Assembly (NCBI GenBank): GCA_013334825.1
Contig: JAAXWR010000001.1
Span: 203,769 to 267,768, forward strand
DNA length: 64,000 nucleotides
From: Candidatus Yonathbacteria bacterium
Lineage (GTDB): Bacteria > Patescibacteriota > Minisyncoccia > Phycocordibacterales > JACNGX01
Direction: 5' to 3'
Every line of letters starts with the position of its first letter. The stretch's first letter is position 1. The notes under the pieces are model-generated. The model did not search any database, was not told the DNA's origin, and saw only the letters and a program-made list of their open reading frames with translations. This document shows positions 1 through 61,320 of this stretch, one piece after another. The translations under genes and the position numbers were made by a program.

Positions 1-96
1 TCTTTTCTCCTTATGATACGCAAGAGAAGTACGTTTATTTCATGTGTTGTTATACAGAGAATGATGCAGACTTTACAGGAGAAAATATAGTAGGTG

Positions 97-882
97 TTAT
101 TCCTCTGTAGGTTCAGAAAATGGCGGCATGTTGCGTCGCTCTTCATCACGAAAAGGAATAAATGCATCTTGTCTTTCAGGACGAATATGTTCAGCATAGA
201 TGATAGTATCTTTGGATACACCAAAAACAACTACGCGATCATCTTCTTTGAGCGTGTATCCTTTGGGTATGCGAGTATCATTCGCTATATACACAGTCAT
301 GGATGCTCCGTCAACGCGCTCGAGTGTAAACGATGAAGCGTCGGTTACCTGCGTAATAACCCCTGGATGGATTTCTGCGTTTTCAGGAAGGGGAAATGGA
401 CCATAAAGAGGGACCCCCGCGGGAAATGCTCCTTCGCGCGTAGCACGGTACATTATGCCATGCATTCCCGTGTGTCCCACAACAAATGTCGCAAGTGCCG
501 CAAACCCAACAATACTTGCGAGGGAATACATAAGAGGTTGTTTGTATGCGAATGCGTATTGACGGACTAATATTTCAAGAATGATAACAAAGATGATAAC
601 TGATCCAACAAGAATCCATGGCAATGAAAGAAAGAGAAGTCCCATTCCTCGCATACCAACATCGGGAGCAAACCACATGCCATTTTGACGGAGAAGAAAA
701 TGGATGAGACTTGCAACGTATACAATACCAATTGATACAATGAATACACCAAGTGCAACGAGAATTGCACGGAATACAAAATGCCACCGTGGCTTCATGC
801 GGGTCTTCCCTGAACGTATTGCTGAAAGGACATTGTCCGTTACAGATGGATTTGTATCAGTTTGTGTCATGGCGTGTTTCAT
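97..882 (-). CDS. multi-pass membrane protein downstream of ECF sigma factor; putative anti-sigma factor
   Basis: Internal start MKHAMTQTD of the 97..1032 ORF. Overlaps the sigma factor stop by ~25 nt. Predicted TM helices and a C-terminal soluble domain. The position is typical of anti-sigma partners. Confidence 0.4.
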   Translation of the reverse strand: MKHAMTQTDTNPSVTDNVLSAIRSGKTRMKPRWHFVFRAILVALGVFIVSIGIVYVASLIHFLLRQNGMWFAPDVGMRGMGLLFLSLPWILVGSVIIFVIILEILVRQYAFAYKQPLMYSLASIVGFAALATFVVGHTGMHGIMYRATREGAFPAGVPLYGPFPLPENAEIHPGVITQVTDASSFTLERVDGASMTVYIANDTRIPKGYTLKEDDRVVVFGVSKDTIIYAEHIRPERQDAFIPFRDEERRNMPPFSEPTEE

Positions 883-1426
883 ATTGAGCGAGTAATTGTT
901 TTTTTGCGCGGGTGATACGTACACCGACAGTAGAAACGGGAATATGAAGAATGTCCGCAATTGCTTTATAATCCATATCTTCGTAGTAGTAAAGAATAAG
1001 TGGCGCGCGATATTTTGGATCAAGGGTATCAAGGTGTTTCTCTAATTCTTGCGCGATTTCTTCTCTGAGAATATCTCCGTCGGCAGTTTCTTTGGCGACA
1101 GGGTGAGGAAACAATGTGTCGGGGTCAAAAGGTATGACAGGTTCACGTGTCCGTTTGCGGATAAGTGATATGAATGCATTGTGCGCGATACGATATATCC
1201 AAGGAGAAAACGCACGTCTTGAGTCGTAACTTTGTATATGCTCGTATGCTTTAATAAAAACATCTTGAAGTACGTCGTCTATGTCGTCTCTATTTGCGAC
1301 AAATTTGCGTCCATATCGGGCGAGTTTTGGTTCATATCGTTTAATAAGCACGGCAAACGCTTCGGCGTCTCCATGCTGTACCGCGCGCGCGGCGTCTTCA
1401 TCACTTGGTGAGATGTGTTGCTCCAT
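857..1426 (-). CDS. RNA polymerase ECF-type sigma-70 family factor
   Basis: 189 aa with sigma region 2 and 4 signatures (DDIDDVLQDVFIKAYE..., C-terminal helix-turn-helix ...IADILHIPVSTVGVRITRAKKQL). Confidence 0.8.
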   Translation of the reverse strand: MEQHISPSDEDAARAVQHGDAEAFAVLIKRYEPKLARYGRKFVANRDDIDDVLQDVFIKAYEHIQSYDSRRAFSPWIYRIAHNAFISLIRKRTREPVIPFDPDTLFPHPVAKETADGDILREEIAQELEKHLDTLDPKYRAPLILYYYEDMDYKAIADILHIPVSTVGVRITRAKKQLLAQYETRHDTN

Positions 1427-8982: not shown

Positions 8983-10185
8983 ATGCACAACAGAACATTT
9001 TCATATATCCCACAAAAAGGATTTGCCGCATTGTCATGGGGGCGCATCCTCTTGACGCTTGCCGAGACAATGGTTGGCATCTTTTTGCCGATTTTCTTGT
9101 ATGAATTGTTTGATAACAATATCTTTTTCGCACTGCTCTTTTTTGTGTTGATGCATGGCGTGTACGGTATTCTTGTGCCCGTGGGGGCAATGATACTCGA
9201 CAAATATGGGTCGCGTCTTCCACTTCTCGTGGGAGTATCACTTTCGGGTGCGTTCATCGGGTCGCTTTATGGCGTGCAGGCGTTTGCGGATGTGCGTGGC
9301 GTGTTTTTTCTTGCACTTGCTTTTGTGACGACTGTTGGTTTTCGCGTTTTCTTTTGGATGCCGTTTCATGTTGATTTTGCGACACATACAGATACAGCAA
9401 TACGTGGTAAGGAAGTTGGACTGATGGAAGCAGGGCTGACTATTGTTGGGACACTTGCACCACTTATCGCAGGATACCTTATCGCATGGTATGGATATGG
9501 CATGCTCTTTCTCGCATCGATTGGTGTTATCGTAGTAACATTTATACCATTTTTGTTTGTCCCCGAAAGAGATATTACCTTTTCATGGGGATATATTGGG
9601 TCGTTCAAGAAATTATGCACGCGTGAAAATAGAAATCTCGCGCTTTCCAGTGGTCTTATGGGAATAGAAAATGTTATTGGTGCTGTTGTGTGGCCACTCT
9701 TTATTTTCATGCTTCTTGAGGGTGATTATGCTCAGGTTGGGTTTATCTCTTCTCTCATTGTTATTGCCACGGTGGTCACAGAACTTTTTACTGGAGATTC
9801 ACTTGATCGATACTCAAAAAAAAGTGTATTGCGTTTCTGGACAGTTTTTTCAGCACTGGGATGGTTTATCAAAATTTTTGTCGCGACAGCATTTCAAATA
9901 TTTGCCGTCGGTGCGTATCATGGTATTGTGCGTTCGCTTGCGGGCGTTTCGTACGAAGCATTTTTTTATGAACTTGCTGCGGATGGGGGACAGTACGTAG
10001 ATGAATACACAGTTATTCGTGAAATGGCAATTCAATTTGCAAAAGTAATTGCGCTCCTCGTCGTCATGGTGATTATCCTCTTTTTCCATATTAAATGGGC
10101 ATTTCTCGTCGGACTCATGAGCGCGCTTGTTCTCAATGGTGTGCTCGCTATAAGTAGTAGGGAGAGGGAGGTAGGAAAGAGGTGA
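8983..10185 (+). CDS. MFS transporter
   Basis: 400 aa, ~12 TM. 3' end runs into repeat R1. Confidence 0.7.
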   Translation: MHNRTFSYIPQKGFAALSWGRILLTLAETMVGIFLPIFLYELFDNNIFFALLFFVLMHGVYGILVPVGAMILDKYGSRLPLLVGVSLSGAFIGSLYGVQAFADVRGVFFLALAFVTTVGFRVFFWMPFHVDFATHTDTAIRGKEVGLMEAGLTIVGTLAPLIAGYLIAWYGYGMLFLASIGVIVVTFIPFLFVPERDITFSWGYIGSFKKLCTRENRNLALSSGLMGIENVIGAVVWPLFIFMLLEGDYAQVGFISSLIVIATVVTELFTGDSLDRYSKKSVLRFWTVFSALGWFIKIFVATAFQIFAVGAYHGIVRSLAGVSYEAFFYELAADGGQYVDEYTVIREMAIQFAKVIALLVVMVIILFFHIKWAFLVGLMSALVLNGVLAISSREREVGKR

Positions 10186-10545
10186 TAGGGACGGGAGAAC
10201 ACTCGAATCAAGAATCACGAAGCACGAATCAAGAATTAAGGGTTACGAAGTACGAACTTATACGAACATACGAAACTGGACGGGATGAAGGGTTATGAAA
10301 TATGAACTTGTACGCCTGCCCCGCACCCTATGTGGTGCATGGTGTTGGGGAATATACGGAATGTACGAATACGACTTCTTTTCTTTTGTCGTTTACCGTT
10401 TATAGTTTTCGTCTTCATATTTCATATTTCTATTTTCGTATTTCATCGTCTATAGTTTTTTCTTTTTATAGTTTATCGTTTATAGTTTCTTCGTCATTCG
10501 TAGGTTCGTACGTATTCGTTATTCGTAACTTTTCTTGAAACTCGT
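10160..10545. repeat. mosaic intergenic repeat R1
   Basis: Shares modules with 30138-30640, 33455-33870, 61182-61320 (reverse complement) and 62640-63176: (a)ggaaataggtgagaggtgatagg, gaatcaagaattaagggttacgaagtacgaacttatacgaacatacgaa (34/34 identical at 62925), cctgccccgcaccctacgtggtgca, and tacgaatacgac...cgtcttcatatttcatatttctattttcgtatttcat. ORF 10302..10538 is a reading-frame artefact. Confidence 0.8.
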
Positions 10546-10633
10546 TTATGGCTAGCGTAAAAAGCAAATCTATTGTATAGTGTCTCTATAAAGCGCTACG
10601 CGCTTTTTCTTTACCCTTTCTTTTCCGTTTTTT

Positions 10634-12424
10634 ATGGATATTCGCAACATCGCCATCATCGCGCACGTGGACCACGGCAAGACAACCTTGACCGACATGT
10701 TGCTTCGTCAAAATGATGCCATCGCCGAAGGTGCATCTATGGACTCAAACACGCTTGAGCGTGAACGTGGTATCACCATTTATTCCAAAAATGCTTCGCT
10801 GATGTATCAGGGAACAAAAATCAATATCGTGGATACGCCGGGGCACGCGGACTTCGGTTCAGAAGTGGAGCGTGTCCTTCGTTCTATTGACTCGGTGCTT
10901 CTCATTGTGGATGCCCAAGAAGGTCCGATGCCACAAACGCGTTTCGTCTTGAAAAAGTCTCTTGAACTTGGGCTCCGTCCTATTGTCGTGATAAACAAAA
11001 TAGACAAACCTGCCGCTGACCCCGCGCGCGCGGAAAGTTTGGTGTTTGACTTGTTTGTAGAACTCGGTGCCGATGATGTGCAGGCGGACTTTCCTATTGT
11101 GTATGCCGATGGACGTTCTGGTATTGCCAAGATTGCACTTACGGATGAAAGTACCACACTCAATCCACTTCTCGATACTATTCTCGCGCATGTTCCTGTT
11201 GCATCGTCGGCAGAGAAAGAAGCACTTCCGCTTCGTTTTCAACCCTTTAATCTTGGCTATGACAACTTTATGGGACGTCTCGCTATTAGCCGTATTTATG
11301 AAGGGACAATATCTGTCGGTATGACTGTGCATGTGAAAAATAGTGCCGGAGAAACACGTCAAGGAAAAATCACAAAATTGTTTATTTTTAAAGGTTTGGG
11401 AAAAGAAGAAGCACAGTCCGCTGTCGCGGGTGATATTGTCATGGTTGCGGGTATTCCCGATATCGATATTGGAGAGACGGTGTTGTCCGACCCGTCGGGG
11501 GACATTTTGCCAGTGATTTCTGTTGATGAGCCGACAATCGCGCTTGATTTTCTGGTAAATGATTCACCGTTTGCGGGACGTGAAGGAAAGTTTGTGACGT
11601 CGCGTCAAATCCGCGAATACTTGGAACGCGAACTGGAAGTAAACGTGGGACTTCGCGTATCGTTTGACCGCAATGACGCGTTTCGTGTCCTTGGTCGAGG
11701 AGAATTGCATATCGCAATCCTCCTTGAAAATATGCGTCGTGCTGGGTATGAGGTGCAGGTATCCAATCCAGAAGTCATTACGAAAGAGGAGAATGGCAAA
11801 ACGATTGAACCATTTGAAGAAGTTATTGTCGATACGCCGGAAGCGTATCAAGGAACAATCATTGAGCGCCTCGGTATGCGCGGATTTGTCATTACACATA
11901 TTGATGCGGAACGTGAAGGTGTGCGACTGACACTCGAAGGTCCTACGCGAGGTATCCTTGGGTATCGCAATCAGTTTGTGATTGATACGAGAGGAGAGGG
12001 GATTCTCGCGACACGTTTTATCGGTTTCAAGCGTTTTACTGGAGAAGTGCGCAAGCGTGCCGTTGGTTCCATGACATCCATGGCATCGGGTAAGGTGCTG
12101 GGATATTCATTGTGGAATCTGCAAGACCGAGGAACACTGTATATCGGACCGGGTGCCGAAGTATATGAAGGTATGGTTATTGGCGATACGTCTAAGGGTG
12201 AAGAAATGTTTGTGAACCCGACAAAAGGAAAGCAACTCACCAACGTGCGCGCGTCGGGAACCGATGAAGCAATCAACCTTGTTCCGCCACTTGAGCTTTC
12301 CATTGAACGCGGACTTGAAGTGATGGCGGATGACGAGCTTCTTGAAGTAACACCAAAGAGTGTCCGTCTGCGTAAACGCTACTTGACGGAGAATGATAGG
12401 ACGAAAGCGAGAAAGACAAAATAA
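10634..12424 (+). CDS. typA: translational GTPase TypA/BipA
   Basis: [25 protein letters not shown] motifs. 596 aa, EF-G-like domain order. Confidence 0.9.
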
Positions 12425-12477
12425 CGCGGACACGCGCGGAACAGACGCGGAAATTTGCTGAATGAGATATCACGCGT

Positions 12478-12505
12478 GGAGGGTCGCTCACGCGACCCCC
12501 TCCCG
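12478..12505 (+). terminator. hairpin after typA
   Basis: ggagggtcgctcacgcgaccccctcc. Confidence 0.5.
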
Positions 12506-12534
12506 TAATCTAGTCTCTCATATAACACAACCAT

Positions 12535-12566
12535 AGCGCGGGTTTTCCTTTTGGAAAACCCGCGCT
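12535..12566. terminator. perfect 32-nt palindrome/hairpin
   Basis: agcgcgggttttcc tttt ggaaaacccgcgct. Contains cgggttttcctttt, which recurs at 13321. Confidence 0.5.
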
Positions 12567-12637
12567 ATGCTCGTCTGTACAAAAAATATCACAGGATAAG
12601 CATTTTTTGATATGGTAGGGGAGAATCATAGAATAGA

Positions 12638-12666
12638 TTGACTTTTGTGTCAAAAGGTGATATAAT
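12638..12666 (+). promoter_or_regulatory. consensus sigma70-type promoter (TTGACT-17-TATAAT)
   Basis: ttgact tttgtgtcaaaaggtga tataat. The -35 box sits in the inverted repeat ttgac...gtcaa. Followed by the consensus SD aggagg 6 nt before the ATG at 12713. Confidence 0.7.
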
Positions 12667-12712
12667 TATACAAGGTTGATTCAAAAAAATAAATTTAAAC
12701 CGAGGAGGTTTT

Positions 12713-13276
12713 ATGTCCATTCAGTTTCGTTTCGCGCTCAAGAGTGAGGGTAACAACCCTTATCTCTCCATCTACGAAGAGCAGACTCCGGCAGAGGCGA
12801 CGGAACGTCTCGTCAACGCCGAGTTCTGCTATGGTTCCCGTGTCACGAAGGTGACTGATACCGTCCTGGTACTCAGGACAACGTATATGGGGCGCCATGA
12901 AATCGCCGTCTTCCAGGGACCGGCTGAGGAAATGAAAAAACTCGTCGCTCTGGCGACCATCTTCCCCAGGGCGATTGAGGTCTATCACGAGAGCGAGGAG
13001 TATATCGCAGCTCTTGCCGAGAAGGTCGAGGCCGCCGCCGGTCTTGTCTTCAAGGGTGTTCCGAAAGAGCTCGCCCTTCTCGTCCCTGTCAATTCCGAGG
13101 GGTGGCAAGTGCTTCAGAGGTCGCTTCTCTCCGTCTTCGGTGCCACCGAAGAGGAGATGAATCTTTGCGTCGCGCAGAAGATGGCACATAAGACCGTCTG
13201 TGCCATCTGCGAGATGGTGGAAGAAGGTATTTTCGCGTCTTTCACCGAAGCATTCGCCTACGCCAAGGCTTCCTGA
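12713..13276 (+). CDS. hypothetical acidic protein; high-GC, C/G-ending codon bias atypical for this window
   Basis: 187 aa. Consensus promoter and SD upstream, UUCG-tetraloop terminator downstream. No recognised family. Confidence 0.6.
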   Translation: MSIQFRFALKSEGNNPYLSIYEEQTPAEATERLVNAEFCYGSRVTKVTDTVLVLRTTYMGRHEIAVFQGPAEEMKKLVALATIFPRAIEVYHESEEYIAALAEKVEAAAGLVFKGVPKELALLVPVNSEGWQVLQRSLLSVFGATEEEMNLCVAQKMAHKTVCAICEMVEEGIFASFTEAFAYAKAS

Positions 13277-13304
13277 AGTTCTTTTTTAGGGTGACAGCCA
13301 CCCG

Positions 13305-13336
13305 CCCGCCGATTCGTCGGCGGGTTTTCCTTTTTT
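13305..13336 (+). terminator. intrinsic terminator (UUCG tetraloop hairpin + T-run)
   Basis: cccgccga ttcg tcggcggg ttttcctttttt. Shares the 14 nt cgggttttcctttt with 12538-12551. Confidence 0.7.
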
Positions 13337-13439
13337 GAGTTGGATATTGAGTCATTGAGGTATTGTTTGAACATTGTACATTGGGCATTATCAAACCGCT
13401 GGCGCATTGCTCAATTTTGTTGTATAGTAAAGCGCATCT

Positions 13440-14699
13440 ATGGATACACAAGATAAGAAACATGATGAGCATTTTGATGTTGTTGTTATCGGAGGCGGTG
13501 CCTCCGGTCTTTTTGCTGCTGGACGCGCGGCTGAGCGGGGCAAAAAGGTGCTCGTATTAGAGAAAAACCGCACGCTTGGGGAGAAGCTTCTTCTCACGGG
13601 TGGTGGCAGATGCAATATCACGAATGCCACATATGATACACGGGAGTTTCTCGCGCATTTGGGCAAGGGGACTGAACCGCTCTTTTCTGCCTTTGCGCAA
13701 TTTGATGTTGCAAAGACGTTCGCTTTTTTTGAACGCCGTGGACTGTCGCTCGTCGTTGAAGCGCGTGGACGTGCGTTCCCCGCATCGCAAAACGCGGGAG
13801 ATGTGCTCAAGGTGATTGAGTCGTATGCACGTGAAGGAGGAGCAATCATTCGTGTCAAAACAAAAGTAACGCGCATACTCGAGAAAAAGGGTCGTGTCGT
13901 GGGTGTAGAAACGGCAAAAAGTGTTATTGGCGCGGATGCCGTGATTGTCGCCACAGGTGGGCTCTCACATCCAGAGACGGGTTCTACCGGTGATGGGTTT
14001 ACGTTCTTGCGTGACCTGGGACATAGTGTGGAGGACCCTGCTGCTGATCTTGTGCCGATTGAAGTGCACGACGCATGGGTCAAGGCGCTTTCGGGCACGT
14101 CACTTTCGTTTATGAAAATGACCGTATATGCAAATGGCAAGAAAGCATTTGCGAAAAAAGGAAAAGTGCTCTTTACGCACTTTGGATTGTCGGGACCGCT
14201 TGTCTTGAATGCCGCACGTGCCATCGGGACACTCCTTGCGCAAGGGCGAGTAACTATTGCTATTGATGCATACCCTGATACGGATATTGGTGCTCTCGAA
14301 AAAGATATTATCCGCGTCTTTGATCAGGCGAAAAATAAAATGATAAAAAATGTTGCTGACGATATCATGCCCCATGGTATGGCAGAAGTTTTCCCGCTCC
14401 TCTTCCCGCACATTCCCCTTGATAAAAAGGTGCACAGTATTACCAAAGAAGAACGACGTCTCATTGTTGATACACTGAAAGCGCTTCCCGTTTCTGTTGT
14501 TGGTCTCATGGGTATGGACCGCGCCATTGTTTCTGATGGTGGTGTTCCTCTTGATGAAATTGATACGAAATATATGCGTTCGCGCTTGTACCCCAATCTG
14601 TATGTGACAGGGGATATGATTCATGTGAATCGCCAGTCAGGTGGATATTCGCTCCAAATTGCATGGACAAGTGGCTATGTTGCCGGCTCGGCGGCATAA
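13440..14699 (+). CDS. HI0933-family NAD(P)/FAD-dependent flavoprotein
   Basis: VVVIGGGASGLFAAGRAAERGKKVLVLEKN...GGGRCNITN, 419 aa. Confidence 0.8.
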   Translation: MDTQDKKHDEHFDVVVIGGGASGLFAAGRAAERGKKVLVLEKNRTLGEKLLLTGGGRCNITNATYDTREFLAHLGKGTEPLFSAFAQFDVAKTFAFFERRGLSLVVEARGRAFPASQNAGDVLKVIESYAREGGAIIRVKTKVTRILEKKGRVVGVETAKSVIGADAVIVATGGLSHPETGSTGDGFTFLRDLGHSVEDPAADLVPIEVHDAWVKALSGTSLSFMKMTVYANGKKAFAKKGKVLFTHFGLSGPLVLNAARAIGTLLAQGRVTIAIDAYPDTDIGALEKDIIRVFDQAKNKMIKNVADDIMPHGMAEVFPLLFPHIPLDKKVHSITKEERRLIVDTLKALPVSVVGLMGMDRAIVSDGGVPLDEIDTKYMRSRLYPNLYVTGDMIHVNRQSGGYSLQIAWTSGYVAGSAA

Positions 14700-14701
14700 T
14701 A

Positions 14702-14728
14702 AAAACCCGTCATGATGACGGGTTTCTG
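14702..14728. terminator. bidirectional hairpin
   Basis: aaaaacccgtcatgatgacgggttt. Confidence 0.5.
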
Positions 14729-14964
14729 AGGGTTATTGTGGCCACCATGTATAAGGGCACACAAAAGAGTACTGAAACACCATACACTGTGGAGATATTT
14801 CCTGTTGCCACTATCACGGCAACTCCCGCACCGGTGAAGGCGGTGATGGTTGCGAAAAAAAGATATACCCAGATATTCCTTTCTCTCCACGTCGTGTAAT
14901 ATAACACGATGAGAGAAAAAGATGCTGCCCATAGCATGAACAAAATTCCTGCGAGGTTTTCCAT
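14710..14964 (-). CDS. possible small membrane protein
   Basis: 84 aa, 2-3 hydrophobic helices. The stop lies inside the terminator hairpin. Confidence 0.25.
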   Translation of the reverse strand: MENLAGILFMLWAASFSLIVLYYTTWRERNIWVYLFFATITAFTGAGVAVIVATGNISTVYGVSVLFCVPLYMVATITLRNPSS

Positions 14965-15089
14965 GGCACGATGATTTTTTTATTATTGTAAGCGACGAAG
15001 AACAATATTTCTTATGTATCATAGATAGTAAGCAATGTCAATCACTATCAAGGAACTCGCACATTGTCTTTATGTGATATGATTTTTAT

Positions 15090-16187
15090 ATGAATATCTT
15101 ACTCTCAATATATAAACTTCCATATCTTTTTTCTGCAAGTATCGTTATTGTAGGTCTCTGTACTGCCGTGCCTCTCGCATACGCGGAGACGGCAACATAT
15201 ATGCGTATGCGCGTCGATGATGTTGTCCATGAGACGCGCGAAGCTATTTCGGGGACGGACACGTATCGTACGGTGCAGACGCTGTCGGCGACTGTTCTCG
15301 ATGGAGAGAGACACGGTGAACGTATAGAGATTGAAAATGATAGGATACCCCTCGTGGAAGGAGATGTCTTTTTTGCAAAAGTAGTAACTGCTGGTGAAGG
15401 AGAGATGATTTCTGTATATGACGCGGACAGAACACGTGTACTCGGTATGCTCGGTATTGTATTTGTCGCGATGACACTTCTTTTTGGTGGCAAACAAGGT
15501 GCGCGGTCACTTGGCTCTCTTTTTGTTAGTATTGCGGTCATTGCATTTGTGTTGTTGCCTCTCTTGTCTCTCGGTTTTCCTCCTGTACCAACAGCGACTG
15601 GTATTGGCGTAGGAATGCTCTTTGTTGCAATATTTCTTACGCATGGATGGAATAAGGGTTCTGTCGTTGCATTTGGGGGAACGGCGCTCGCCGTTGTGCT
15701 TACAGGGATTATCGCATGGTTTGTTCTTGGCGTGGGCATGTTCACAGGGCTTTCTTCTGATGAGTCACTTTCTATTGCTTTGGGTACAACGGGGCATATT
15801 GATCTTGCGGGCATACTTCTTGCTTCTGTTATTATCGGCGCACTCGGTGTGCTTGATGATGTGGGTATTACGCAAGTATCTGTCACGCGCGAACTTTGCG
15901 CGATGGGGGGACGCACACGTCGCGAGGTGTACCAAAGCGCGATGAAGGTCGGTAAAGACCATATCGGCGCGCTCATCAATACACTTGTTCTTGCGTATAC
16001 AGCATCAGCGTTACCACTCCTTCTTCTCTTCACACTTTCGCATGAAATGCCCGCAATCGTTCTTATCAATGGTGAAGCAATAGCCGAAGAGATTGTGCGC
16101 GCTCTTGCGGGAAGTGTCGGTCTTATTGTGGCAGTTCCTCTGACGACATATGTCGCGGTGAGGACGTTTTTTGTGTCTCAACGTTGA
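15090..16187 (+). CDS. YibE/F-like family membrane protein
   Basis: Signal or TM, then an extracytoplasmic domain, then ~7 TM. Composition and length resemble YibE/F. Confidence 0.55.
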   Translation: MNILLSIYKLPYLFSASIVIVGLCTAVPLAYAETATYMRMRVDDVVHETREAISGTDTYRTVQTLSATVLDGERHGERIEIENDRIPLVEGDVFFAKVVTAGEGEMISVYDADRTRVLGMLGIVFVAMTLLFGGKQGARSLGSLFVSIAVIAFVLLPLLSLGFPPVPTATGIGVGMLFVAIFLTHGWNKGSVVAFGGTALAVVLTGIIAWFVLGVGMFTGLSSDESLSIALGTTGHIDLAGILLASVIIGALGVLDDVGITQVSVTRELCAMGGRTRREVYQSAMKVGKDHIGALINTLVLAYTASALPLLLLFTLSHEMPAIVLINGEAIAEEIVRALAGSVGLIVAVPLTTYVAVRTFFVSQR

Positions 16188-27752: not shown

Positions 27753-27781
27753 TTGACAAAATATTTCTCTTGGTATATAAT
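27753..27781 (+). promoter_or_regulatory. perfect consensus sigma70 promoter (TTGACA-17-TATAAT) with no obvious protein-coding target
   Basis: ttgaca aaatatttctcttggta tataat. ~550 nt downstream before alaS contains only short or poor ORFs and several hairpins. Confidence 0.5.
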
Positions 27782-30137: not shown

Positions 30138-30640
30138 TTAACAAGAGGAGACAGGAAACGCAAGTGATAGAAAGAGAAAAAACAAGTGTGAGCATGGATA
30201 TGTTCACGCTTGTTTTTTGTCGTTCATCATTTCACCATGAGGATAGATCGTACTGAGTTACGAGATTTAAGTGTCGAAAGACAACAGAACGAGTTTCAAG
30301 TTGGCAGTTTCAAGTTTCAAGAACGCTTACGGATAACGAATACATACGCATGTACGAATACGACTCATTTTCTTTTATCGTTTATAGTTTTCGTCTTCAT
30401 ATTTCATATTTCTATTTTCTTATTTCATCGTCTACCGTTTTTCTTCGTCATTCGTATATTCCCAAGCACCATGCACCACGTAGGGTGCATGGCACGCTTG
30501 ATTCGAGTGTTCGTCCCTATAACCTATCACCTATAACCTCTTTCCTACATTCGTCCGTCCCTCTAACCTCTTTCCTAATCCCACCTTCTTTCCCCACGTA
30601 CGAGTAGTACAAAACGTATCATGTACGGTATACTATAGTT
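30138..30640. repeat. mosaic intergenic repeat R2
   Basis: Contains tacgaatacgactcattttcttttatcgtttatagttttcgtcttcatatttcatatttctatttt (as in R1) and pyrimidine modules cctataacctatcacctataacctctttcctac. ORFs 30210..30536 and 30350..30607 are artefacts. Confidence 0.8.
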
Positions 30641-33454: not shown

Positions 33455-33870
33455 GTAGGAAATAGGTGAGAGGTGATAGGCACGAATGCTCGAATCAAGC
33501 GTGCCCTGCACCCTACATGGCGTGCTGTGCATCCTACGTGGTGCACAGTGCAGGGAATCACGAAGTACGAAGCAAGAATACGAAAGATGAATTAAGAAAT
33601 ATGAACGTAGGAAATAGGTGAGAGGTGATAGGTTATAGAGACGGACGAGATGAAAGGTTACGAAATACGAACTTGTACACCTGCCCCGTACCCTACGTGG
33701 CGTGCTGTGCATCCATGTGGCTTGCTGTGCATCCCACGTGGTGCACAGTGCAGGGTGCTGGGGAATCTACGAATGATATATAACACGTGTGGAAGAGACT
33801 TTTTATTCGTATATTCGTGCGTATTCGTTATTCGTAAGCACTCGTTATTCGTAAGCGTTCTCGTAACTCA
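33455..33870. repeat. mosaic intergenic repeat R3
   Basis: Two copies of gtaggaaataggtgagaggtgatagg and cc(c)tgcaccctacgtggcgtgctgtgcatcc...cacgtggtgcacagtgcaggg inverted repeats, plus ggttacgaaatacgaacttgtac. ORF 33146..33712(-) is an artefact. Confidence 0.8.
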
Positions 33871-40278: not shown

Positions 40279-41268
40279 TTGTCTACTTTTTGTCTTATGA
40301 CTTTTACACAAAGAATGGAAAAAATACAAAAAGATTTCAATGTCAATGCAATTTATGCAAAGAATATTGTTTTGCGTATACAAGAGAAAAATGAGGAAAA
40401 TTTTTGGAAGCAAGTGAATATTGCAATAATGCAAAAGCCAAAACCGTTTGTAAAATGGGTTGGTGGGAAACGTCAACTACTTAAACAATTTCGAGATATG
40501 GGCCTGTACCCTCCCGTTGAGTTTAATCCCGAGAAGAACAGATATTTTGAACCTTTTGTTGGAGGTGGTGCAGTTTTTTTTGATTTATTGCCACAAAAAG
40601 CATTTCTTTCTGACATGAACAGTGAACTCATTACAACATATAACGTTATAAAGAATGATGTTGAAAAACTTATTATGTCTCTCAAGAAACATAAACATGA
40701 AAAAGAATATTATTATTCAATACGTGAGAAGGATCCTAGTACAATGACCGATGTGGCAGTCGCTTCAAGATTTATTTATCTAAATAGAACTGGATTTAAT
40801 GGAATGTATCGCGTGAATAAGTCTGGGAAATACAATGTTCCTTTTGGGAAAAACAAGAACCCACTTATTTGTGATGAGACGAATCTAAGAAGAGTATCAG
40901 AAACATTGAAGCATGTGGAAATTGCAAGAGACGATTATAAAAATGTTTTGAAAAAAGCAAAAAAAGGAGATTTTATTTATTTTGATCCCCCATATCATCC
41001 AGTGAACAAAACCGCAGCTTTTACTTCGTATACCCCTGACGGTTTTAGGGAAAAAGAACAAATCGAGTTGAGAGATACTTTTTTGAAACTTCACAAAAGA
41101 GGCTGTTTTGTTATGCTTTCAAACTCAGACGCACCGTTTATTAACAAGATATATTCTGAGGTAAAGAATGATGGAATAGCGATTCATAAAGTTCAAGCAG
41201 GAAGGGCTATTAATTCAAAAGGGAACAGACGAGGAAAGATTTTTGAGGTTTTAATTACTAATTATTAA
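40279..41268 (+). CDS. Dam-family DNA N6-adenine methyltransferase, DpnM/M.MboIA-like (GATC-type)
   Basis: KPFVKWVGGKRQLL, YFEPFVGGGAVFFDL, YLNRTGFNGMYRVN, FIYFDPPYHP motifs. Closely resembles S. pneumoniae DpnM by recall. Start may be at M-51 (40429). Low GC. Confidence 0.85.
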   Translation: MSTFCLMTFTQRMEKIQKDFNVNAIYAKNIVLRIQEKNEENFWKQVNIAIMQKPKPFVKWVGGKRQLLKQFRDMGLYPPVEFNPEKNRYFEPFVGGGAVFFDLLPQKAFLSDMNSELITTYNVIKNDVEKLIMSLKKHKHEKEYYYSIREKDPSTMTDVAVASRFIYLNRTGFNGMYRVNKSGKYNVPFGKNKNPLICDETNLRRVSETLKHVEIARDDYKNVLKKAKKGDFIYFDPPYHPVNKTAAFTSYTPDGFREKEQIELRDTFLKLHKRGCFVMLSNSDAPFINKIYSEVKNDGIAIHKVQAGRAINSKGNRRGKIFEVLITNY

Positions 41269-41281
41269 TCATCTAAAAATC

Positions 41282-43015
41282 ATGAATAATATAAAAAAAT
41301 TTATAGATACAAATCCCTACACGTATTCAACCCTTTGTGATAGATACAAAAGATTTTCTATGCCATTAAACCAGCGCCCTTACGCTTGGAAAATTTCAAA
41401 CATTTCCGAACTATGGAGTGCCATTCTTGAAAACGAAGAAGGTTATTTTGTAGGAAATCTCGTATGTCTAGATCCTTCCGATGAGAGTAATGGTACCCTG
41501 GTTGTTGTAGATGGCCAACAAAGGTTAACAACCATATCGCTTATACTTATTGCCATTAAAGATATTCTTATCGAATGCAATGATGGGACTAAAAAAACAA
41601 CCCAACTTATAAATTGGTTAACTAACAGTTTACTTTGGCAAGATCCCAAGACATACGAATATTTTCCAAGATTGATCCACAGTAAAGAAAATTTGCTTGA
41701 GGCGTATAAAAATATCTTAGAAAATGGAAACGAAATTCCAAAAAATATTGACGATAATCAAATGCGTTATTATTCGAATATTAGATATATAAAATCTCTC
41801 ATAAAGAAAGAAATTAAAGCAAAATCTGATGATCAGATTGAAAAGCTTATACAAAAGATTTTATCCCTACAGTTTATAGCGATTGTGGTAAATTCAGAAA
41901 ATGATATTTACGATTTGTTTGAAGGTTTAAACTCAACAGGGTTAGGTCTTTCCGTTGCTGATCTGTTAAAGAATTCAGTTCTAAAATTTGCCCGAAAAGG
42001 AAGAGCAAGAGAAGAAATAGAGGCGGATTGGATCCAAATGGAGTCATATTTTGAAGCAACAAAAACATCCCTGTTCCCTAAATTCCTAAGACATTACTAT
42101 ATTTCTGAGAATGGTCTTATTTCTTCTTCTCGACTTTTTAAAACTCTAAAGAAAGAAAAAATTGAGAATAAACAAACTCAAGAAGTTGTTGCGTTTGTGA
42201 AAGAGCTGTTGGAGAATGCGCAGATATATATGGGGTTAAGATTTGATGAATATGAAAGCAATCTTAACCTACTTGTTCGCGATAGGGAGAGTAAAAAGAT
42301 AATTAGAACTTTTGAATATGTAGGAAGTGTTGATCAAGTTTATGCGGTGTTGTTGGCTTTTTATAACAAAAAAAGGCATGACCCTGATTATAAACCGAGC
42401 TCTTTTAAGCGAGACATTCGTCAACTCCTTAAATTTGTTATATTGGCAAGATTTGTAAGTATCAACCCTTCGGAGTATGAAAAAATATTTGGTGATATGT
42501 GCGAAATATCCACAGAATATTCAGGGGTAAAATATGAAAAAGAGATAGGACAACATTTTAAGAAATTGTTTAATTTAGTTAATAAAAAAGATGAATTTGT
42601 GAGTAATTTCTCAAACGAAATAGAATATGGAAGAGATTCAAAACTCATAGAATATCTTTTGCAAGAAGTGATGCGAGAATATTCAAAAGAAGATCGCGGA
42701 ATAACAGTATTGAACCCAAATATCGAGCATATTTTACCAAGATCTCCAAAAAAATGGGGATTGGATAAAGAAGATATAGGTTCTTATGTTAATAAAATAG
42801 GCAATCTCACAATTCTTCATGATCTAGACAATAATGATGCCGGGAATGAAACTTTTGAAGAAAAGATGAAGAAAGTTTATTCTGTTTCGAAATTTAGATT
42901 TAATAATGATATAAGTAAATATGAAGAAGTTTTTGTCGAGAATCCTTCACTGGCAATTGAACAGAGAGGGAAAGATATTTCCACTTTTGTTTTTAGTTTT
43001 TTAAAGTCAATCTAG
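41282..43015 (+). CDS. GmrSD-family protein: N-terminal DUF262 (ParB-like, DGQQR) + C-terminal DUF1524 (His-Me/HNH-like) domains
   Basis: VVVDGQQRLTTISLIL near the N-terminus; NIEHILPRSP...IGNLTILHDLDNN near the C-terminus. 577 aa. Confidence 0.75.
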   Translation: MNNIKKFIDTNPYTYSTLCDRYKRFSMPLNQRPYAWKISNISELWSAILENEEGYFVGNLVCLDPSDESNGTLVVVDGQQRLTTISLILIAIKDILIECNDGTKKTTQLINWLTNSLLWQDPKTYEYFPRLIHSKENLLEAYKNILENGNEIPKNIDDNQMRYYSNIRYIKSLIKKEIKAKSDDQIEKLIQKILSLQFIAIVVNSENDIYDLFEGLNSTGLGLSVADLLKNSVLKFARKGRAREEIEADWIQMESYFEATKTSLFPKFLRHYYISENGLISSSRLFKTLKKEKIENKQTQEVVAFVKELLENAQIYMGLRFDEYESNLNLLVRDRESKKIIRTFEYVGSVDQVYAVLLAFYNKKRHDPDYKPSSFKRDIRQLLKFVILARFVSINPSEYEKIFGDMCEISTEYSGVKYEKEIGQHFKKLFNLVNKKDEFVSNFSNEIEYGRDSKLIEYLLQEVMREYSKEDRGITVLNPNIEHILPRSPKKWGLDKEDIGSYVNKIGNLTILHDLDNNDAGNETFEEKMKKVYSVSKFRFNNDISKYEEVFVENPSLAIEQRGKDISTFVFSFLKSI

Positions 43016-43058
43016 TTCCTGGTTCTCAAATTTATTAACAACATATCACATTAACTCT

Positions 43059-43925
43059 ATGGAAAATAGTAAGTTTTTAGTCTTTAAAAATACACGAAAA
43101 AACTCAATAAAGACTTGGGAGTATTTTGTGAATTGGGATAAGGTATTCAAGAATAAGAGAGAAGTGGAAATAGCTCTTAATAAAATGAATTATCTTCTCG
43201 GAAAAGAAAATTTAAAAGAAGAGTTTTTCTTATTATTGAAATCAGAACCAGATATTATAAAAACTTTCCCCATTCTTTTGGCGGTAAGAGAGCAAAAATT
43301 AGAGATTTATGATAAAAAAGAAAAGACATCGAGGTTTTTTGATTTTTCTAGTATTGATAATATGGAAGATCCAGAAGAATATTTTGAATTTTTTGAAAAT
43401 ACCGGTCTTACCAATATTTTTAAAAAAGATGGTGTAAAAAACCTTGTCGATTATGTTATGGGCGTAGAAGTTGGTCTTGAAAGTAATGGGAGAAAAAATC
43501 GAGGAGGTCAACTCATGGAGGTGATAACTGAAGAGTATATAAAGCAGTATTCAGAAGCAAATCATTTTTCTTATTTAGCACAAGCCACTGCGAAAGGTAT
43601 TTATGAAAGATGGGGTATAAATATTTCTGTAGATAAGTCAGAAAGAAGTTTTGATTTTGCTGTATATAATCCATTAAAAAATAAAATAAAATTGTTCGAA
43701 GTAAACTTTTATAATGGAGGAGGTTCAAAATTAAAAGCGGTTTGTGGAGAATTTAAAGGTCTTTTTGATTATCTAAAAGCACAAGGTGTTGAATTTGTTT
43801 GGATTACTGACGGTATGGGTTGGAATAATACGACAAGACCCCTTGAGGAGGTATATAACCATAACGATAATATCTTCAATCTATCAATGCTCGAAGAAGG
43901 GGTCCTCAACTCTCTTAAATGGTAG
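43059..43925 (+). CDS. type II restriction endonuclease, DpnII/MboI family (GATC)
   Basis: 288 aa, same length as R.DpnII. Motifs NLVDYVMGVEVGLESNGRKNRGG, EVNFYNGGGSKL, FVWITDGMGW match R.DpnII by recall. Confidence 0.75.
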   Translation: MENSKFLVFKNTRKNSIKTWEYFVNWDKVFKNKREVEIALNKMNYLLGKENLKEEFFLLLKSEPDIIKTFPILLAVREQKLEIYDKKEKTSRFFDFSSIDNMEDPEEYFEFFENTGLTNIFKKDGVKNLVDYVMGVEVGLESNGRKNRGGQLMEVITEEYIKQYSEANHFSYLAQATAKGIYERWGINISVDKSERSFDFAVYNPLKNKIKLFEVNFYNGGGSKLKAVCGEFKGLFDYLKAQGVEFVWITDGMGWNNTTRPLEEVYNHNDNIFNLSMLEEGVLNSLKW

Positions 43926-43937
43926 TATATTTTTTGT

Positions 43938-44690
43938 ATGAAATTTGGTCCAGACACATTTGATTTAGAATGTACAACCGTATGGGCTTTTCCTCGACGT
44001 GGTAATTGGGCTACACATACGTCAGATTGGCGTGGGAATTGGTCTCCTGAAGTGGTGCGCAATCTCATTTTACGATATTCCGAAGAGGGAGATATTTTAC
44101 TCGATCCAATGATTGGTGGGGGAACAACAGCAATCGAAGCAAAGATTTTGAATAGAAACATTATTTGTTCAGATGTGAATGATATCGCTATTGAACGGAC
44201 GAAGAATTGTCTTGTGTTTGATGTAGAGAATAATTCTTGGCAAAAGGTCTTGAAAAGAGACGCTAGAGATCTTAATAAAGCAAAAAATGAGAGTGTTGAT
44301 TTTATTCTCACTCATCCTCCATATGCCGATATTATAAAATATAGCGATGGTAAGATAGAAGAAGATCTTTCAAATATTCATAATATAGATTCCTTCGTCG
44401 ATGAAATGGAAAAAGTGGCAACGGAGCTTCATAGGGTTTTGAAGAAAGACAAATACTGCGCAATTTTAATCGGAGATACTCGTAGAAATAAAATGTATCA
44501 GCCTTTAGCTTTTAAGGTAATGGATAGATTTTTGAAAACAGGTTTTCAATTGAAAGAAGATATTATCAAACGACAATTTAATTGTCAGGCGACAGGTTTT
44601 TGGGTGAATAAATCAAAAGAAAATAATTTTCTCCTTATTATGCACGAACATCTCTTTGTGTTTCAAAAAGTTGGTGGAGACGCTCATTGA
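43938..44690 (+). CDS. second DNA methyltransferase (N6-adenine/N4-cytosine, ParB-like methylase family) of the R-M operon
   Basis: AdoMet motif I LDPMIGGGTTAIEA and motif IV ILTHPPYADI. Its last 7 codons and stop lie inside repeat copy 1. Confidence 0.75.
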   Translation: MKFGPDTFDLECTTVWAFPRRGNWATHTSDWRGNWSPEVVRNLILRYSEEGDILLDPMIGGGTTAIEAKILNRNIICSDVNDIAIERTKNCLVFDVENNSWQKVLKRDARDLNKAKNESVDFILTHPPYADIIKYSDGKIEEDLSNIHNIDSFVDEMEKVATELHRVLKKDKYCAILIGDTRRNKMYQPLAFKVMDRFLKTGFQLKEDIIKRQFNCQATGFWVNKSKENNFLLIMHEHLFVFQKVGGDAH

Positions 44691-44835
44691 CGACGAGTTT
44701 TTCTGGAATGAAGACACGGGGCACTATGAGCCGAATGATTTTACGGATTGCTTTGAGCATACCGGCAACGTGAGGTGCGCGCAGTGCGGGGAAGCGTGGA
44801 CCGGATTGTAGAGCAAACAAAAAAGCGCCGTCTAG
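44669..44835 (+). repeat. Zn-ribbon-encoding repeat, copy 1 (fused to methylase 3' end; no own start codon)
   Basis: ~95% identical to copy 3. Encodes ...LVETLIDDEFFWNEDTGHYEPNDFTDCFEHTGNVRCAQCGEAWTGL* (frame 44671..44811), then hairpin aaaaaagcgccgtctaggcgcttt. Confidence 0.8.
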
Positions 44836-44850
44836 GCGCTTTCGGCTCCT
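44826..44850. terminator. bidirectional hairpin terminator between convergent genes
   Basis: aaaaagcgccgtctaggcgctttcgg, with a T-run on the minus strand. Confidence 0.5.
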
Positions 44851-45230
44851 TAAGGTTTTTTTTCGTTGCAGAGAACACCATTAAGAATGGTGAAACCGAG
44901 AGCTTGACGAATCATGTCGTAATGTTTTGGAGTCGCTATTATTTTGTAGTACAGAGGTTCCCCTTCATAGAGGTTGTTGGGGGTGGCATTGTAGACAGAC
45001 ACCAACTGGGGGAACGGACAATGGGTCCCAGTTATTTTAAGTACAAGCTTACTCAGATCAAAACGTTCAATGATCTCAGCGCATCCTTTACTTGAATCTT
45101 CTTTGAGATATTCAACAGTGTTCCCTTCTCGTCTAATAGAGGTGATGATTGTGGTATATTTTTCGATCAACGCCTCAGGATGTTCCTTGTTTTCCATTGT
45201 GGTATGTTTTTTTGTTTCTTGACTCTGCAT
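44850..45230 (-). CDS. hypothetical small protein, paralog family A (C-terminal ...YY.I..P....M......GFT motif)
   Basis: C-terminus EPLYYKIIATPKHYDMIRQALGFTIL aligns with the 46634..46963 and 49479..49760 products. Confidence 0.4.
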   Translation of the reverse strand: MQSQETKKHTTMENKEHPEALIEKYTTIITSIRREGNTVEYLKEDSSKGCAEIIERFDLSKLVLKITGTHCPFPQLVSVYNATPNNLYEGEPLYYKIIATPKHYDMIRQALGFTILNGVLCNEKKP

Positions 45231-45337
45231 ACTTCTCTTGCGATATAGTATGCTTTTGGTCCAACTGTGTCAACAGAGTACGTAAAGTGAGAGTTCTTTA
45301 TTGGTTGGATTGTCGAACAAAAGGAAATCGTCGTGTG

Positions 45338-45378
45338 CGTAGAGCCCCGCACATCTGTCAGATGTGCGGGGCTCTACG
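45338..45378. promoter_or_regulatory. perfect 20-bp inverted repeat (41-bp palindrome) overlapping the ATG of repeat copy 2
   Basis: cgtagagccccgcacatctg t cagatgtgcggggctctacg. Confidence 0.6.
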
Positions 45379-45523
45379 CAAGTTGGTGGAGACGCTCATT
45401 GACGACGAGTTTTTCTGGAATGAAGAGACTGGGCATTATGAACCGAACAAGTTTACGGATTGTTTTGAGCATACTGGCAACGTGAGGTGCACGCAGTGCG
45501 GGGAAGCGTGGACAGGCGCTTGA
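45362..45523 (+). CDS. small Zn-ribbon protein (repeat copy 2), possibly decaying
   Basis: MCGALRKLVETLIDDEFFWNEETGHYEPNKFTDCFEHTGNVRCTQCGEAWTGA. Differences from copies 1 and 3 are mostly synonymous. The longer in-frame 124-aa ORF from 45149 overlaps the upstream minus gene and looks non-protein-like. Confidence 0.3.
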   Translation: MCGALRKLVETLIDDEFFWNEETGHYEPNKFTDCFEHTGNVRCTQCGEAWTGA

Positions 45524-45667
45524 AAAGGAGTCTGCAGAAGAGTTGAAATCTCTCGAAAAGTCCTTGTGTGTCTCGGATGTTGACATATATTATTTTTTAT
45601 GCTACTCTAAAACGAGTAAAAGGAAATTACAGTTTTCATTAATATTCGAATCATTCAAGGAGGCAAC

Positions 45668-45871
45668 ATGGCCACTATTAAAGAGGGAAGTCCGGTATGG
45701 GTGGACGCCAATGGCGTCTGTCACCTGCTTACTTGTGATCACATTAAATCACCTGCCGTTCATGGGTTGGCAGGCGAGAACAGGGACGCCCTATTCTGCC
45801 CTGTTTGTATGGAGGGATACCGCACAATTCCCGATTTCCCGTATGATGAAAGCCAAGAGATTTCAGTGTGA
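45668..45871 (+). CDS. small Cys-rich protein (67 aa), candidate zinc-binding
   Basis: SD aaggagg 6 nt upstream. CHLLTCDH...CPVC. Possible promoter ttgaca-17-tactct at 45578-45606. Confidence 0.45.
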   Translation: MATIKEGSPVWVDANGVCHLLTCDHIKSPAVHGLAGENRDALFCPVCMEGYRTIPDFPYDESQEISV

Positions 45872-46007
45872 AGTCCGCTTTATTCCTCGATGAGGCGATT
45901 CTGTGGGCATTTGCAACGGGTTTGTAAAACCCAGCTTTTCGTGGTCTTGAGAAGGAAAAGAAAGAGATATATCTTAAGTCCACGATCAGGGCTCTTTTCC
46001 CCGGTAT

Positions 46008-46224
46008 CGTGTTTGATTCATTCGTCGAATTTGGACAATTTCTGGAGGCTTTTCTCAAACCCGCCCTCATGGAGGCTTTTCCACATTTCAAGCATGGTCC
46101 TGTCGGAAGTAAAATACTTTCCGAAGAAATGCTTAAGGTCCTTGCACTTCTCGAAACGAACGGTCGGGAATGGAAAGACAATGTAGAGTGGAGGAGGAAG
46201 TTCTCTCAACTGCTGACCCATTGA
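46008..46224 (+). CDS. possible small protein (GTG start), weak
   Basis: 71 aa, helical-looking. No SD. Followed by terminator 46245-46278. Confidence 0.2.
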
Positions 46225-46244
46225 TTGTTTTCGTGTGATGTGAA

Positions 46245-46278
46245 AAACAACCCGCTGCTTGTATAGAGCGGGTTTTTT
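46245..46278 (+). terminator. intrinsic terminator
   Basis: aaacaacccgctgcttgtatagagcgggtttttt. Confidence 0.65.
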
Positions 46279-46454
46279 GTATCGAGAGTTATTTTTCGGA
46301 GATAAAACGACATGTAATTAACATCAATGGGTATTTAGTGCCGGATAGTGTGTTTCAAGAATAGGCACTCATCAAATAGAATAAGAAATCAGTCGAACTT
46401 TATGAGTAAAAGATCAAAGAAAGACATGCCTGCCAACTCTGCGGGGCCGAGCGC

Positions 46455-46640
46455 AAGTTGGTGGAGACGCTCATTGAGGACGAGTTTTTCTGGAATGAAG
46501 ACACGGGGCACTATGAGCCGAATAAGTTTACGGATTGTTTTGAGCATACCGGCAATGTGTGGTGCGCGCAGTGCGGGGAAGCGTGGACCGGATTGTAGAG
46601 CAAACAAAAAAGCGCCCTGCGGGGCGCTTTTGATTACGAG
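46455..46640 (+). pseudogene. Zn-ribbon repeat copy 3; the reading frame has a stop just upstream and no start codon (upstream ATG at 46400 is in another frame)
   Basis: (taa)KIKERHACQLCGAERKLVETLIEDEFFWNEDTGHYEPNKFTDCFEHTGNVWCAQCGEAWTGL*, then terminator aaaagcgccctgcggggcgctttt. Confidence 0.5.
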
Positions 46641-61181: not shown

Positions 61182-61320
61182 AAATGAAAAACTATAAACG
61201 ATGAAATACGAAAATAGAAATATGAAATATGAAGACGAAAACTATAAATGGTAAACGATGAAATACGAAAATAGAAATATGAAATATGAAGACGAAAACT
61301 ATAAACGGTAAAATAAAAGC
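61182..61320. repeat. mosaic repeat R4: two tandem ~62-bp units, reverse complement of a module in R1/R2
   Basis: atgaaatacgaaaatagaaatatgaaatatgaagacgaaaactataaa[ct]ggtaaacg x2. Confidence 0.8.

Follow-up and report, generated by a model that had tools for sequence, protein, structure and literature searches.

We can conclude that gene X, an open reading frame (ORF) of 187 amino acids (aa) situated between typA and a HI0933-like flavoprotein gene in a 64-kb stretch of Candidatus Yonathbacteria DNA (the window, in what follows), most probably belongs to a native and vertically inherited single-gene transcription unit of the chromosome of this Candidate Phyla Radiation (CPR) lineage, a reading to which we assign a probability of about 0.78. 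The ORF lies exactly where the initial annotation of the sequence had placed it, and its product is 100% identical to HGB03_00920, a protein encoded on a 450-kb contig of a Candidatus Yonathbacteria metagenome-assembled genome. The CPR protein that X encodes has a narrow distribution, evolves fast and is probably abundant; its fold is predicted with confidence, and its only relatives form an uncharacterised jumbo-phage family.

The reading is carried first of all by synteny. Besides the identical HGB03_00920 only four close homologues of X (52-68% identity) were found among 5.8 billion proteins, and scans of IMG/VR and the JGI metagenomes for close relatives gave nothing new. Orthologues with 61-63% aa identity occupy the slot between typA and the flavoprotein gene in at least two further Yonathbacteria genomes, L001 and L003: the order in L003 is typA, X, flavoprotein gene, and in L001 a gene with a Fib_succ_major domain (11035-11754, minus strand) stands on the opposite strand between X and the flavoprotein gene. 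At the L008 locus the 3' end of typA is followed by a 212-aa gene and then by an X with an internal deletion, at L005 an IS30-like transposase gene adjoins X, and in L007, the most distant homologue, X is followed by pth. The absence from the same locus in related genomes that horizontal transfer would predict is therefore not found, since X is present there in L001 and L003 and follows typA in L008. These genomes are well diverged, with synonymous divergence (dS) of the flanking genes at 1.6-2.8 and hence near saturation, and it is the presence of X in the same slot across such a distance that overturns the suggestion of a recent acquisition made in the initial annotation. At the aa level typA is 84-91% identical between the genomes and the flavoprotein 78-86%, whereas X reaches only 62-63% and has a nonsynonymous rate about four times that of typA; with a nonsynonymous divergence (dN) of 0.23-0.28 and a dN/dS of about 0.2 it is nonetheless a real coding gene under purifying selection. 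Furthermore, no transposase, integrase, att site or terminal inverted repeat was found between typA and the flavoprotein gene of the window. X and the flavoprotein gene are separated by about 160 nt in the window, and by about 300 nt at the L003 locus.

The unit itself is composed of the following features.

12713 to 13276, plus strand: gene X (187 aa, 20.7 kDa, isoelectric point (pI) 5.0), a divergent member of the PHROG 29309 type
12638 to 12666, plus strand: sigma-70-type promoter with -35 TTGACT, a 17-nt spacer and an extended -10, TGaTATAAT
12703 to 12708, plus strand: Shine-Dalgarno sequence AGGAGG, 4 nt before the ATG
13289 to 13303, plus strand: hairpin 1 of the 3' untranslated region (3'UTR), GGGTG-ACAGC-CACCC, with one compensatory change in L001 (GGGCG/CGCCC)
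13304 to 13336, plus strand: intrinsic terminator with a 9-bp stem, a UUCG loop and a T tract

The self-contained organisation proposed initially is upheld, and the unit is monocistronic, having a promoter close to the consensus as well as a strong ribosome-binding site and a terminator of its own. The TTGACT (12638-12643) and TATAAT (12661-12666) hexamers had been recognised before, and to these a TG at 12658-12659 can now be added; with its 17-nt spacer the site scores 11/12 and is the best within 6 kb, and the arrangement typical of extended -10 sigma-70 promoters is kept in the orthologous loci. Sites of at least 11/12 number nine in the whole window on both strands (128 kb of scanned strand), one being that of X and another preceding groES; the only perfect 12/12 site of the window, TTGACA-17-TATAAT, is found at 27753-27781 (plus strand). 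In alignments of the upstream regions the block AGATTGACTTTT..TCAAAA..TGATATAAT is conserved between the window, L003 and L008, which also have AGATTGACTTT..TGaTATAAT in common, and L001 has TGCTATAAT with a divergent spacer, so that both hexamers are retained there and the spacer is different. The ttgac/gtcaa inverted repeat of 5 nt reported at the -35 is indeed present, though specific to the window. Transcription of X would start from this promoter near position 12673, giving a leader of about 40 nt in which the AGGAGG, maintained as GGAGG or GGGAG in orthologues, may act as a strong ribosome-binding site. High expression of X is a reasonable prediction from the near-consensus promoter.

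At the other end the mRNA is predicted to finish in a two-hairpin 3'UTR, the second hairpin of which would be the intrinsic terminator. The 5-bp hairpin followed by the 9-bp terminator gives a fold of -25.7 kcal/mol (z = -3.0), and the terminator stem (13304-13325), the loop of which is closed by an A-U pair and the tail of which reads TTTCCTTTTTT, combines the GC-rich stem-loop and U tract by which intrinsic terminators are recognised. Together with the AGGAGG, the UUCG loop had been correctly identified at the outset. The entire 3'UTR of about 60 nt is conserved among the close loci, helix 2 (the terminator) is 98% paired across loci, and a 24-nt terminator core is identical in four close loci, both L008 copies included; in the more distant L007 the terminator is related yet different. 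Covariation in the hairpins is weak, with two compensatory pairs in six sequences, which is not above shuffled controls, and Rfam gave no match at E <= 1 for positions 10000-16000. Conservation of the promoter and terminator in syntenic orthologues is at odds with the notion, raised initially, of an engineered insert. It should be mentioned, however, that a hairpin downstream of the typA stop codon (hairpin A, listed below) has homologous counterparts behind typA in both L001 and L003, where compensatory changes are seen, and since it is similarly conserved, strong conservation of a terminator is not specific to X.

In composition X is an outlier, just as had been noticed initially from its higher GC and C/G-ending codons relative to its two neighbours. 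Its GC content is 0.555 and its GC content at third codon positions (GC3) 0.676, against 0.480 and 0.444 for typA and 0.492 and 0.440 for the flavoprotein gene, and the difference from the flanks (.68 vs.44) is real. X has the highest GC3 among all window ORFs of at least 100 aa, corresponding to z = 4.3 relative to 44 likely genes of the window (mean 0.368, standard deviation 0.072, maximum 0.522), and its third positions are A, C, G and T in proportions of.10,.37,.31 and.22. A composition deviating from that of the host genome (GC3 0.676 vs 0.368), commonly taken as a mark of horizontal transfer, is accordingly found. The same-locus orthologues are however raised in a similar way, GC3 of X and of its flanks being.62 vs.51-.53 in L001 and.53 vs.39-.41 in L003; in L008 the values are.58 for X,.35 for the inserted gene and.58 for the typA fragment, and in L007 X is barely raised (.50 vs.47). 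Since the excess is shared, in weaker form, by L001 and L003 despite nearly saturated synonymous sites, selection, and not recent import, is tentatively taken as its main source.

Codon usage was compared with that of the ribosomal-protein, chaperone and rpoA genes of the window. By log-likelihood of highly expressed genes versus the rest X scores +0.046 per codon, rank 7 of 41 and inside the ribosomal-protein range, with strong deviations at Phe, Glu, Gln, Val and Arg. X uses GGT and CGT in preference to GGC and CGC (for Gly, GGT.67 and GGC 0), which is unlike the trace of a GC-rich donor. No tRNA genes were found in the window. A lineage-specific and ongoing process is favoured because dS is near saturation, because GC3 in X is highest in the very genome whose background GC3 is lowest, and because third positions of X are enriched in C in the window copy and in G in the orthologues. 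We tentatively suggest that the GC3 excess comes mainly from selection that still acts against codons ending in A or T, in an mRNA that would be strongly expressed; that such selection is tied to high expression or to mRNA stability is put forward with low confidence.

As for the gene product, X is a soluble, acidic and Glu-rich protein in which neither a signal peptide nor a membrane segment was found. The impression that it belongs to no recognisable family proved right as far as Pfam and NCBIfam are concerned, since scans against these and PADLOC gave nothing meaningful for X or for 63 family members. A profile built from five close sequences and searched against 1.84 billion representative proteins nevertheless retrieved 69 proteins at E <= 1e-3 (67 beyond the X orthologues), mostly of about 165-190 aa, and 30 of the 63 aligned family members match phrog_29309 with E values down to 8e-37. 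X is thus connected to PHROG 29309, a rare family whose proteins have about 175 aa, by transitive profile homology and by equal length. Members found by tblastn are encoded by Ralstonia phages RP12 (ORF190), RP31, FLC1-1B and FLC4-3B (gp203) and by Xanthomonas phage vB_XciM_LucasX (LUCX_98), all five being jumbo phages, and the genes next to the phage members are all hypothetical. RP12 and RP31 have been described as ΦKZ-related, and the paper describing them makes no mention of the ORF homologous to X (PMC5468394). Further members occur on one phage-like contig and on bacterial contigs with variable, mobile-element-rich surroundings, where they adjoin an IS66 transposase and PemK, or a PIN-FitA toxin-antitoxin pair and an RHS toxin. 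Two distant members (L013, 1624-5346, and L014, 8999-10051) lie on GC-rich bacterial contigs with Peptidase_S41 genes within a few kb, and also near toxin-antitoxin, IS66 and RHS genes.

The AlphaFold2 model of X, computed with a 63-sequence alignment, has a predicted local distance difference test (pLDDT) score of 92.2 and a predicted template modelling (pTM) score of 0.84, and predicts a beta-beta-alpha-beta-beta-beta-alpha-alpha sandwich for residues 1-113, a short linker and a four-helix C-terminal domain (130-186). Foldseek against BFVD gave RP12 ORF190 (A0A1L7N1M0) as the best viral match, with E 1.8e-9 and a template modelling (TM) score of 0.57-0.60, and by comparison of predicted structures X therefore has the same fold as the phage member. 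X resembles the PHROG 29309 phage proteins in length (about 175-190 aa), acidity (family median pI 5.0), profile-level homology and predicted fold, and differs from them in being chromosomal in a CPR bacterium, between housekeeping genes; to distant family members it is only 16-27% identical. The function of X, once established, would annotate the whole PHROG 29309 family and might point to an exchange of genes between phages and CPR bacteria.

The occurrence of the other PHROG 29309 members in ΦKZ-related jumbo phages and in mobile-element-rich bacterial regions makes it plausible that X has an ancient phage origin and was domesticated in a Yonathbacteria ancestor. Phage 'morons', as described by Hendrix and colleagues, are autonomous promoter-gene-terminator units of deviant composition in lambdoid phages, and X has in common with them the one-gene unit, the strong promoter (predicted) and terminator of its own, the odd composition and the phage-related relatives; unlike a moron it is found in a bacterial chromosome and not in a prophage, is long syntenic and has no flanking phage genes. 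One may ask whether the unit came as an ancient moron, promoter and terminator included, from a phage or mobile element richer in GC into the Yonathbacteria ancestor and has not yet lost all of its foreign composition, so that the GC3 would be a remnant of the donor. This we consider the foremost competitor of vertical inheritance with ongoing selection, though an unlikely one. It is a live alternative since family members elsewhere, in contexts of 48-60% GC, have a GC3 of.62-.76, as X has, and it agrees with the phage association of the family, with the stepwise GC3 of X across orthologues (.68,.62,.58,.53,.50), as uneven loss of a donor signal would give, and with a codon choice that sets X apart from the highly expressed genes as well as from the genome at large. 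However, dS between the genomes is at least 1.2-2.8, by which most of a donor signal should have gone, and the lowest background GC3 (that of the window, 0.37) goes together with the highest GC3 in X. The preference for GGT and CGT and the lack of GGC are likewise unlike GC-rich donors, and the enrichment of C3 in the window versus G3 in the orthologues points to a lineage-specific, ongoing process.

The flanking direct repeat, which had been taken as a sign of insertion, requires separate treatment and is best considered with the hairpins in which its copies reside.

12473 to 12505, plus strand: hairpin A, GGAGGGTCGC-TCAC-GCGACCCCCTCC, downstream of the typA stop codon; it folds and probably serves as terminator of typA, or else as a stabilising hairpin
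12532 to 12569, no strand assigned: hairpin B, a perfect 17-bp palindrome, CATAGCGCGGGTTTTCC-TTTT-GGAAAACCCGCGCTATG, the 5' arm of which carries repeat copy 1
12538 to 12552, plus strand: direct repeat copy 1, GCGGGTTTTCCTTTT, an exact 15-mer made up of the 5' arm and loop of hairpin B
13320 to 13334, plus strand: direct repeat copy 2, GCGGGTTTTCCTTTT, made up of the last 5-6 nt of the terminator 3' arm and the T tract

The repeat is thus genuine and its copies do lie within hairpins, in the 5' arm of hairpin B and at the end of the terminator 3' arm, as had been claimed; its description as a 14-mer at 12538 and 13321 needs correction, since it is a 15-mer at 12538 and 13320, of which the 14-mer starts at 12539. 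By bare count such pairs are unremarkable, as Markov-3 simulations lead one to expect about 1.1 exact pairs of at least 14 nt within 1.5 kb in each window and several further ones are present. The 11-mer core of the repeat, on the other hand, occurs in the 64 kb only at 12538 (plus), 12553 (minus) and 13320 (plus), with 0.06 expected, and L008 has the same three-site layout, L001 and L003 having the terminator copy only. In L008, positions 1036-1131 correspond to the 3' end of X, the 3'UTR and the terminator (window 13232-13330) with 86% identity, positions 1121-1299 to hairpin B, the promoter and the leader (window 12538-12715) with 79%, and the two homologous segments join inside the repeat. 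Since the 11-mer is restricted to three sites, the layout recurs in L008 and the L008 junction is of this kind, the repeat pair has shared ancestry. That the 15-nt repeat is instead a chance match of two T-rich hairpin tails, with no history behind it, is in our view improbable. The number of pairs expected and the presence of others in the window would allow it, and so would the fact that the 24-nt terminator core, searched against species-representative genomes, matched only four unrelated genomes and no Yonathbacteria locus, these matches appearing to be chance or convergent identical hairpins; it does not agree, however, with the retention of the three-site layout in L008, with the homologous flanks on both sides of the L008 junction or with the absence of the 11-mer core from the rest of the window.

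The L008 junction is the product expected of unequal recombination between the two repeats, leading to a tandem duplication of the cassette, of which the first copy has later been mostly replaced by the 212-aa gene. There the 212-aa gene (380-1018, GC3 0.35) stands between typA and X; behind it come about 35 nt left over from the 3' end of X, a second copy of the terminator and then the internally deleted X copy of 143 aa (1297-1728); the L008 locus is a rearrangement hot spot. The hairpin B homologue of L008 again has a 5' arm equal to the tail of a terminator copy. The 15-nt repeat of the window consists of terminator sequence occurring twice, the upstream palindrome looking like the residue of a duplicated terminator, and would represent a recombination substrate or scar; either the upstream copy is the last remnant of a duplicated terminator, or similar hairpin tails served as the crossover point. 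Of the suggested recombination into a terminator, then, the involvement of terminator sequence and of recombination is borne out by the repeats and by the recombinant junction in L008, but its reading as an insertion is not. A target-site duplication does not fit, because the copies are terminator sequence inside hairpins, because a mobility gene is absent and because the orthologues in L001 and L003 have no upstream copy.

Several observations nonetheless weigh against our overall account of X as a native, probably strongly expressed gene, plausibly of ancient phage descent. In its codon choice X departs from the ribosomal-protein and chaperone set at Phe (TTC.90 vs.17), Glu (GAG.67 vs.22), Val (GTC.72 vs.20) and Arg (AGG 3/7 vs.01), so that simple translational optimisation is not the explanation, and X is rich in C3 in its window copy and in G3 in the orthologues. 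In CPR bacteria, where translational selection is expected to be weak, the persistent codon anomaly of X is a small puzzle. The strength of the promoter is judged from its agreement with the consensus. As regards descent, the match of X alone to phrog_29309 is not significant (E = 0.19, 12.7 bits, residues 24-83), so that the link to this family is transitive, and no close relative of X occurs in IMG/VR viral contigs, so that a phage origin is not demonstrated. Finally, hairpin B, which lies in a segment of about 55 nt missing from L001 and L003 in an alignment read by eye, is found in the window and in L008 and is missing from L001, the closest to L008 as far as X is concerned; either two losses or an exchange between lineages must therefore be assumed for the repeat.

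With regard to function, the conserved positions of the family are mostly Gly, hydrophobic and acidic residues, and no catalytic constellation was found among them. Lacking conserved catalytic residues, X, a soluble and acidic protein of two domains, most likely acts by binding a partner and would have a binding or adaptor role, which is the least secure part of our account. The predicted order of secondary structure elements in residues 1-113 is that of the longin/roadblock proteins (LC7, MglB, LAMTOR), and nearly all of the weak matches of the model in the PDB are of this type. These are however not significant (TM score 0.2-0.3, root-mean-square deviation 9-14 Å), Foldseek against the PDB gave none at E <= 1e-3, searches of the PDB with sequence profiles returned spurious helical matches only, so that there is no sequence-profile link, and the C-terminal helical domain of X has no counterpart in longin/roadblock proteins. 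A more specific proposal, in which X is a domesticated phage-derived adaptor with a longin/roadblock-like N-terminal domain, very highly expressed and acting on a GTPase such as TypA/BipA, the translational GTPase encoded next to it, or protecting against CPR phages as a decoy or immunity factor, its codon composition being kept by selection on mRNA stability or abundance, is in consequence highly speculative and quite improbable.

A recent horizontal insertion with target-site duplication, or an engineered or assembly-derived insert, is scarcely credible, even though the outlying composition, the self-contained architecture and the exact 15-nt flanking direct repeat would at first sight invite it. 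Syntenic orthologues exist in genomes near synonymous-site saturation, L001 and L003 have X without the upstream repeat, the repeats lie inside hairpins and not at the ends of an element, mobility genes and terminal inverted repeats are missing, and the true compositional island of the window, a DpnII-type system at 40279-44690, bears little resemblance to the X unit. A marked deviation in composition, even with flanking repeats, is thus insufficient for claiming recent transfer, and synteny with diverged relatives overturns such a claim here. Target-site duplications of insertion sequences (IS) and integron cassettes likewise have short direct repeats bracketing a single gene, but the X unit is without transposase, integrase, attC or inverted repeat, and its repeats are parts of hairpins. 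What appears to be a real IS event at the X locus, the IS30-like element of L005, also looks different from the arrangement in the window. In L005 the IS30-like transposase gene (HTH_38 and rve domains; 9-1025, minus strand) replaces the promoter region of an X of the L003 type, and the sequence becomes homologous to L003 again some 70 nt ahead of the ATG (1026-1112), so that the insertion appears to have cut X from its promoter.

Hardly more believable is the idea that X owes its GC3 bias to an overlapping element, be it an antisense ORF or a structured or antisense RNA, since the 164-aa antisense ORF that suggests it (12695 to 13189, minus strand) is open only because X has no TTA, CTA or TCA codons and is broken two to four times in every orthologue, since the divergent promoter-like site on the minus strand (12653 to 12625) relies on the window-specific gtcaa, and since no Rfam family matches at E <= 1. 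We have accordingly rejected the antisense ORF as a by-product of codon choice. The minus-strand site (TTGACA-17-TATGAT, 11/12), which overlaps the promoter of X and faces the 3' end of typA, was likewise rejected as a divergent promoter, as the gtcaa on which it depends is not conserved in the orthologous loci.

Elsewhere in the window, positions 40279-44690 form a low-GC island (GC 0.31-0.36 vs 0.43 for the window) with genes for a D12-class adenine methylase, a GmrSD type IV endonuclease, a DpnII endonuclease and an N6/N4 methylase. The island is a DpnII-type restriction-modification cluster, systems of this type recognising GATC, and recent acquisition is far more plausible for it than for the X cassette. 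A 162-nt repeat is present in three direct copies (44668, 45380 and 46455, together spanning 44668-46616) with 81-96% identity, and the last 23 nt of the cluster are at the same time the beginning of the first copy. Finally, dispersed intergenic repeats rich in ACGAA/TTCGT occur in both orientations at 10186-10540, 30350-30560, 33455-33855, 38043, 50682, 61195-61312 and 62925-63167, and include tandem arrays of 57 nt (2.1 copies, at 61195) and 44 nt (2.9 copies, at 63043). A copy is also present between typA and X in L003 (1800-1840), and the repeat family is therefore common to Yonathbacteria genomes.

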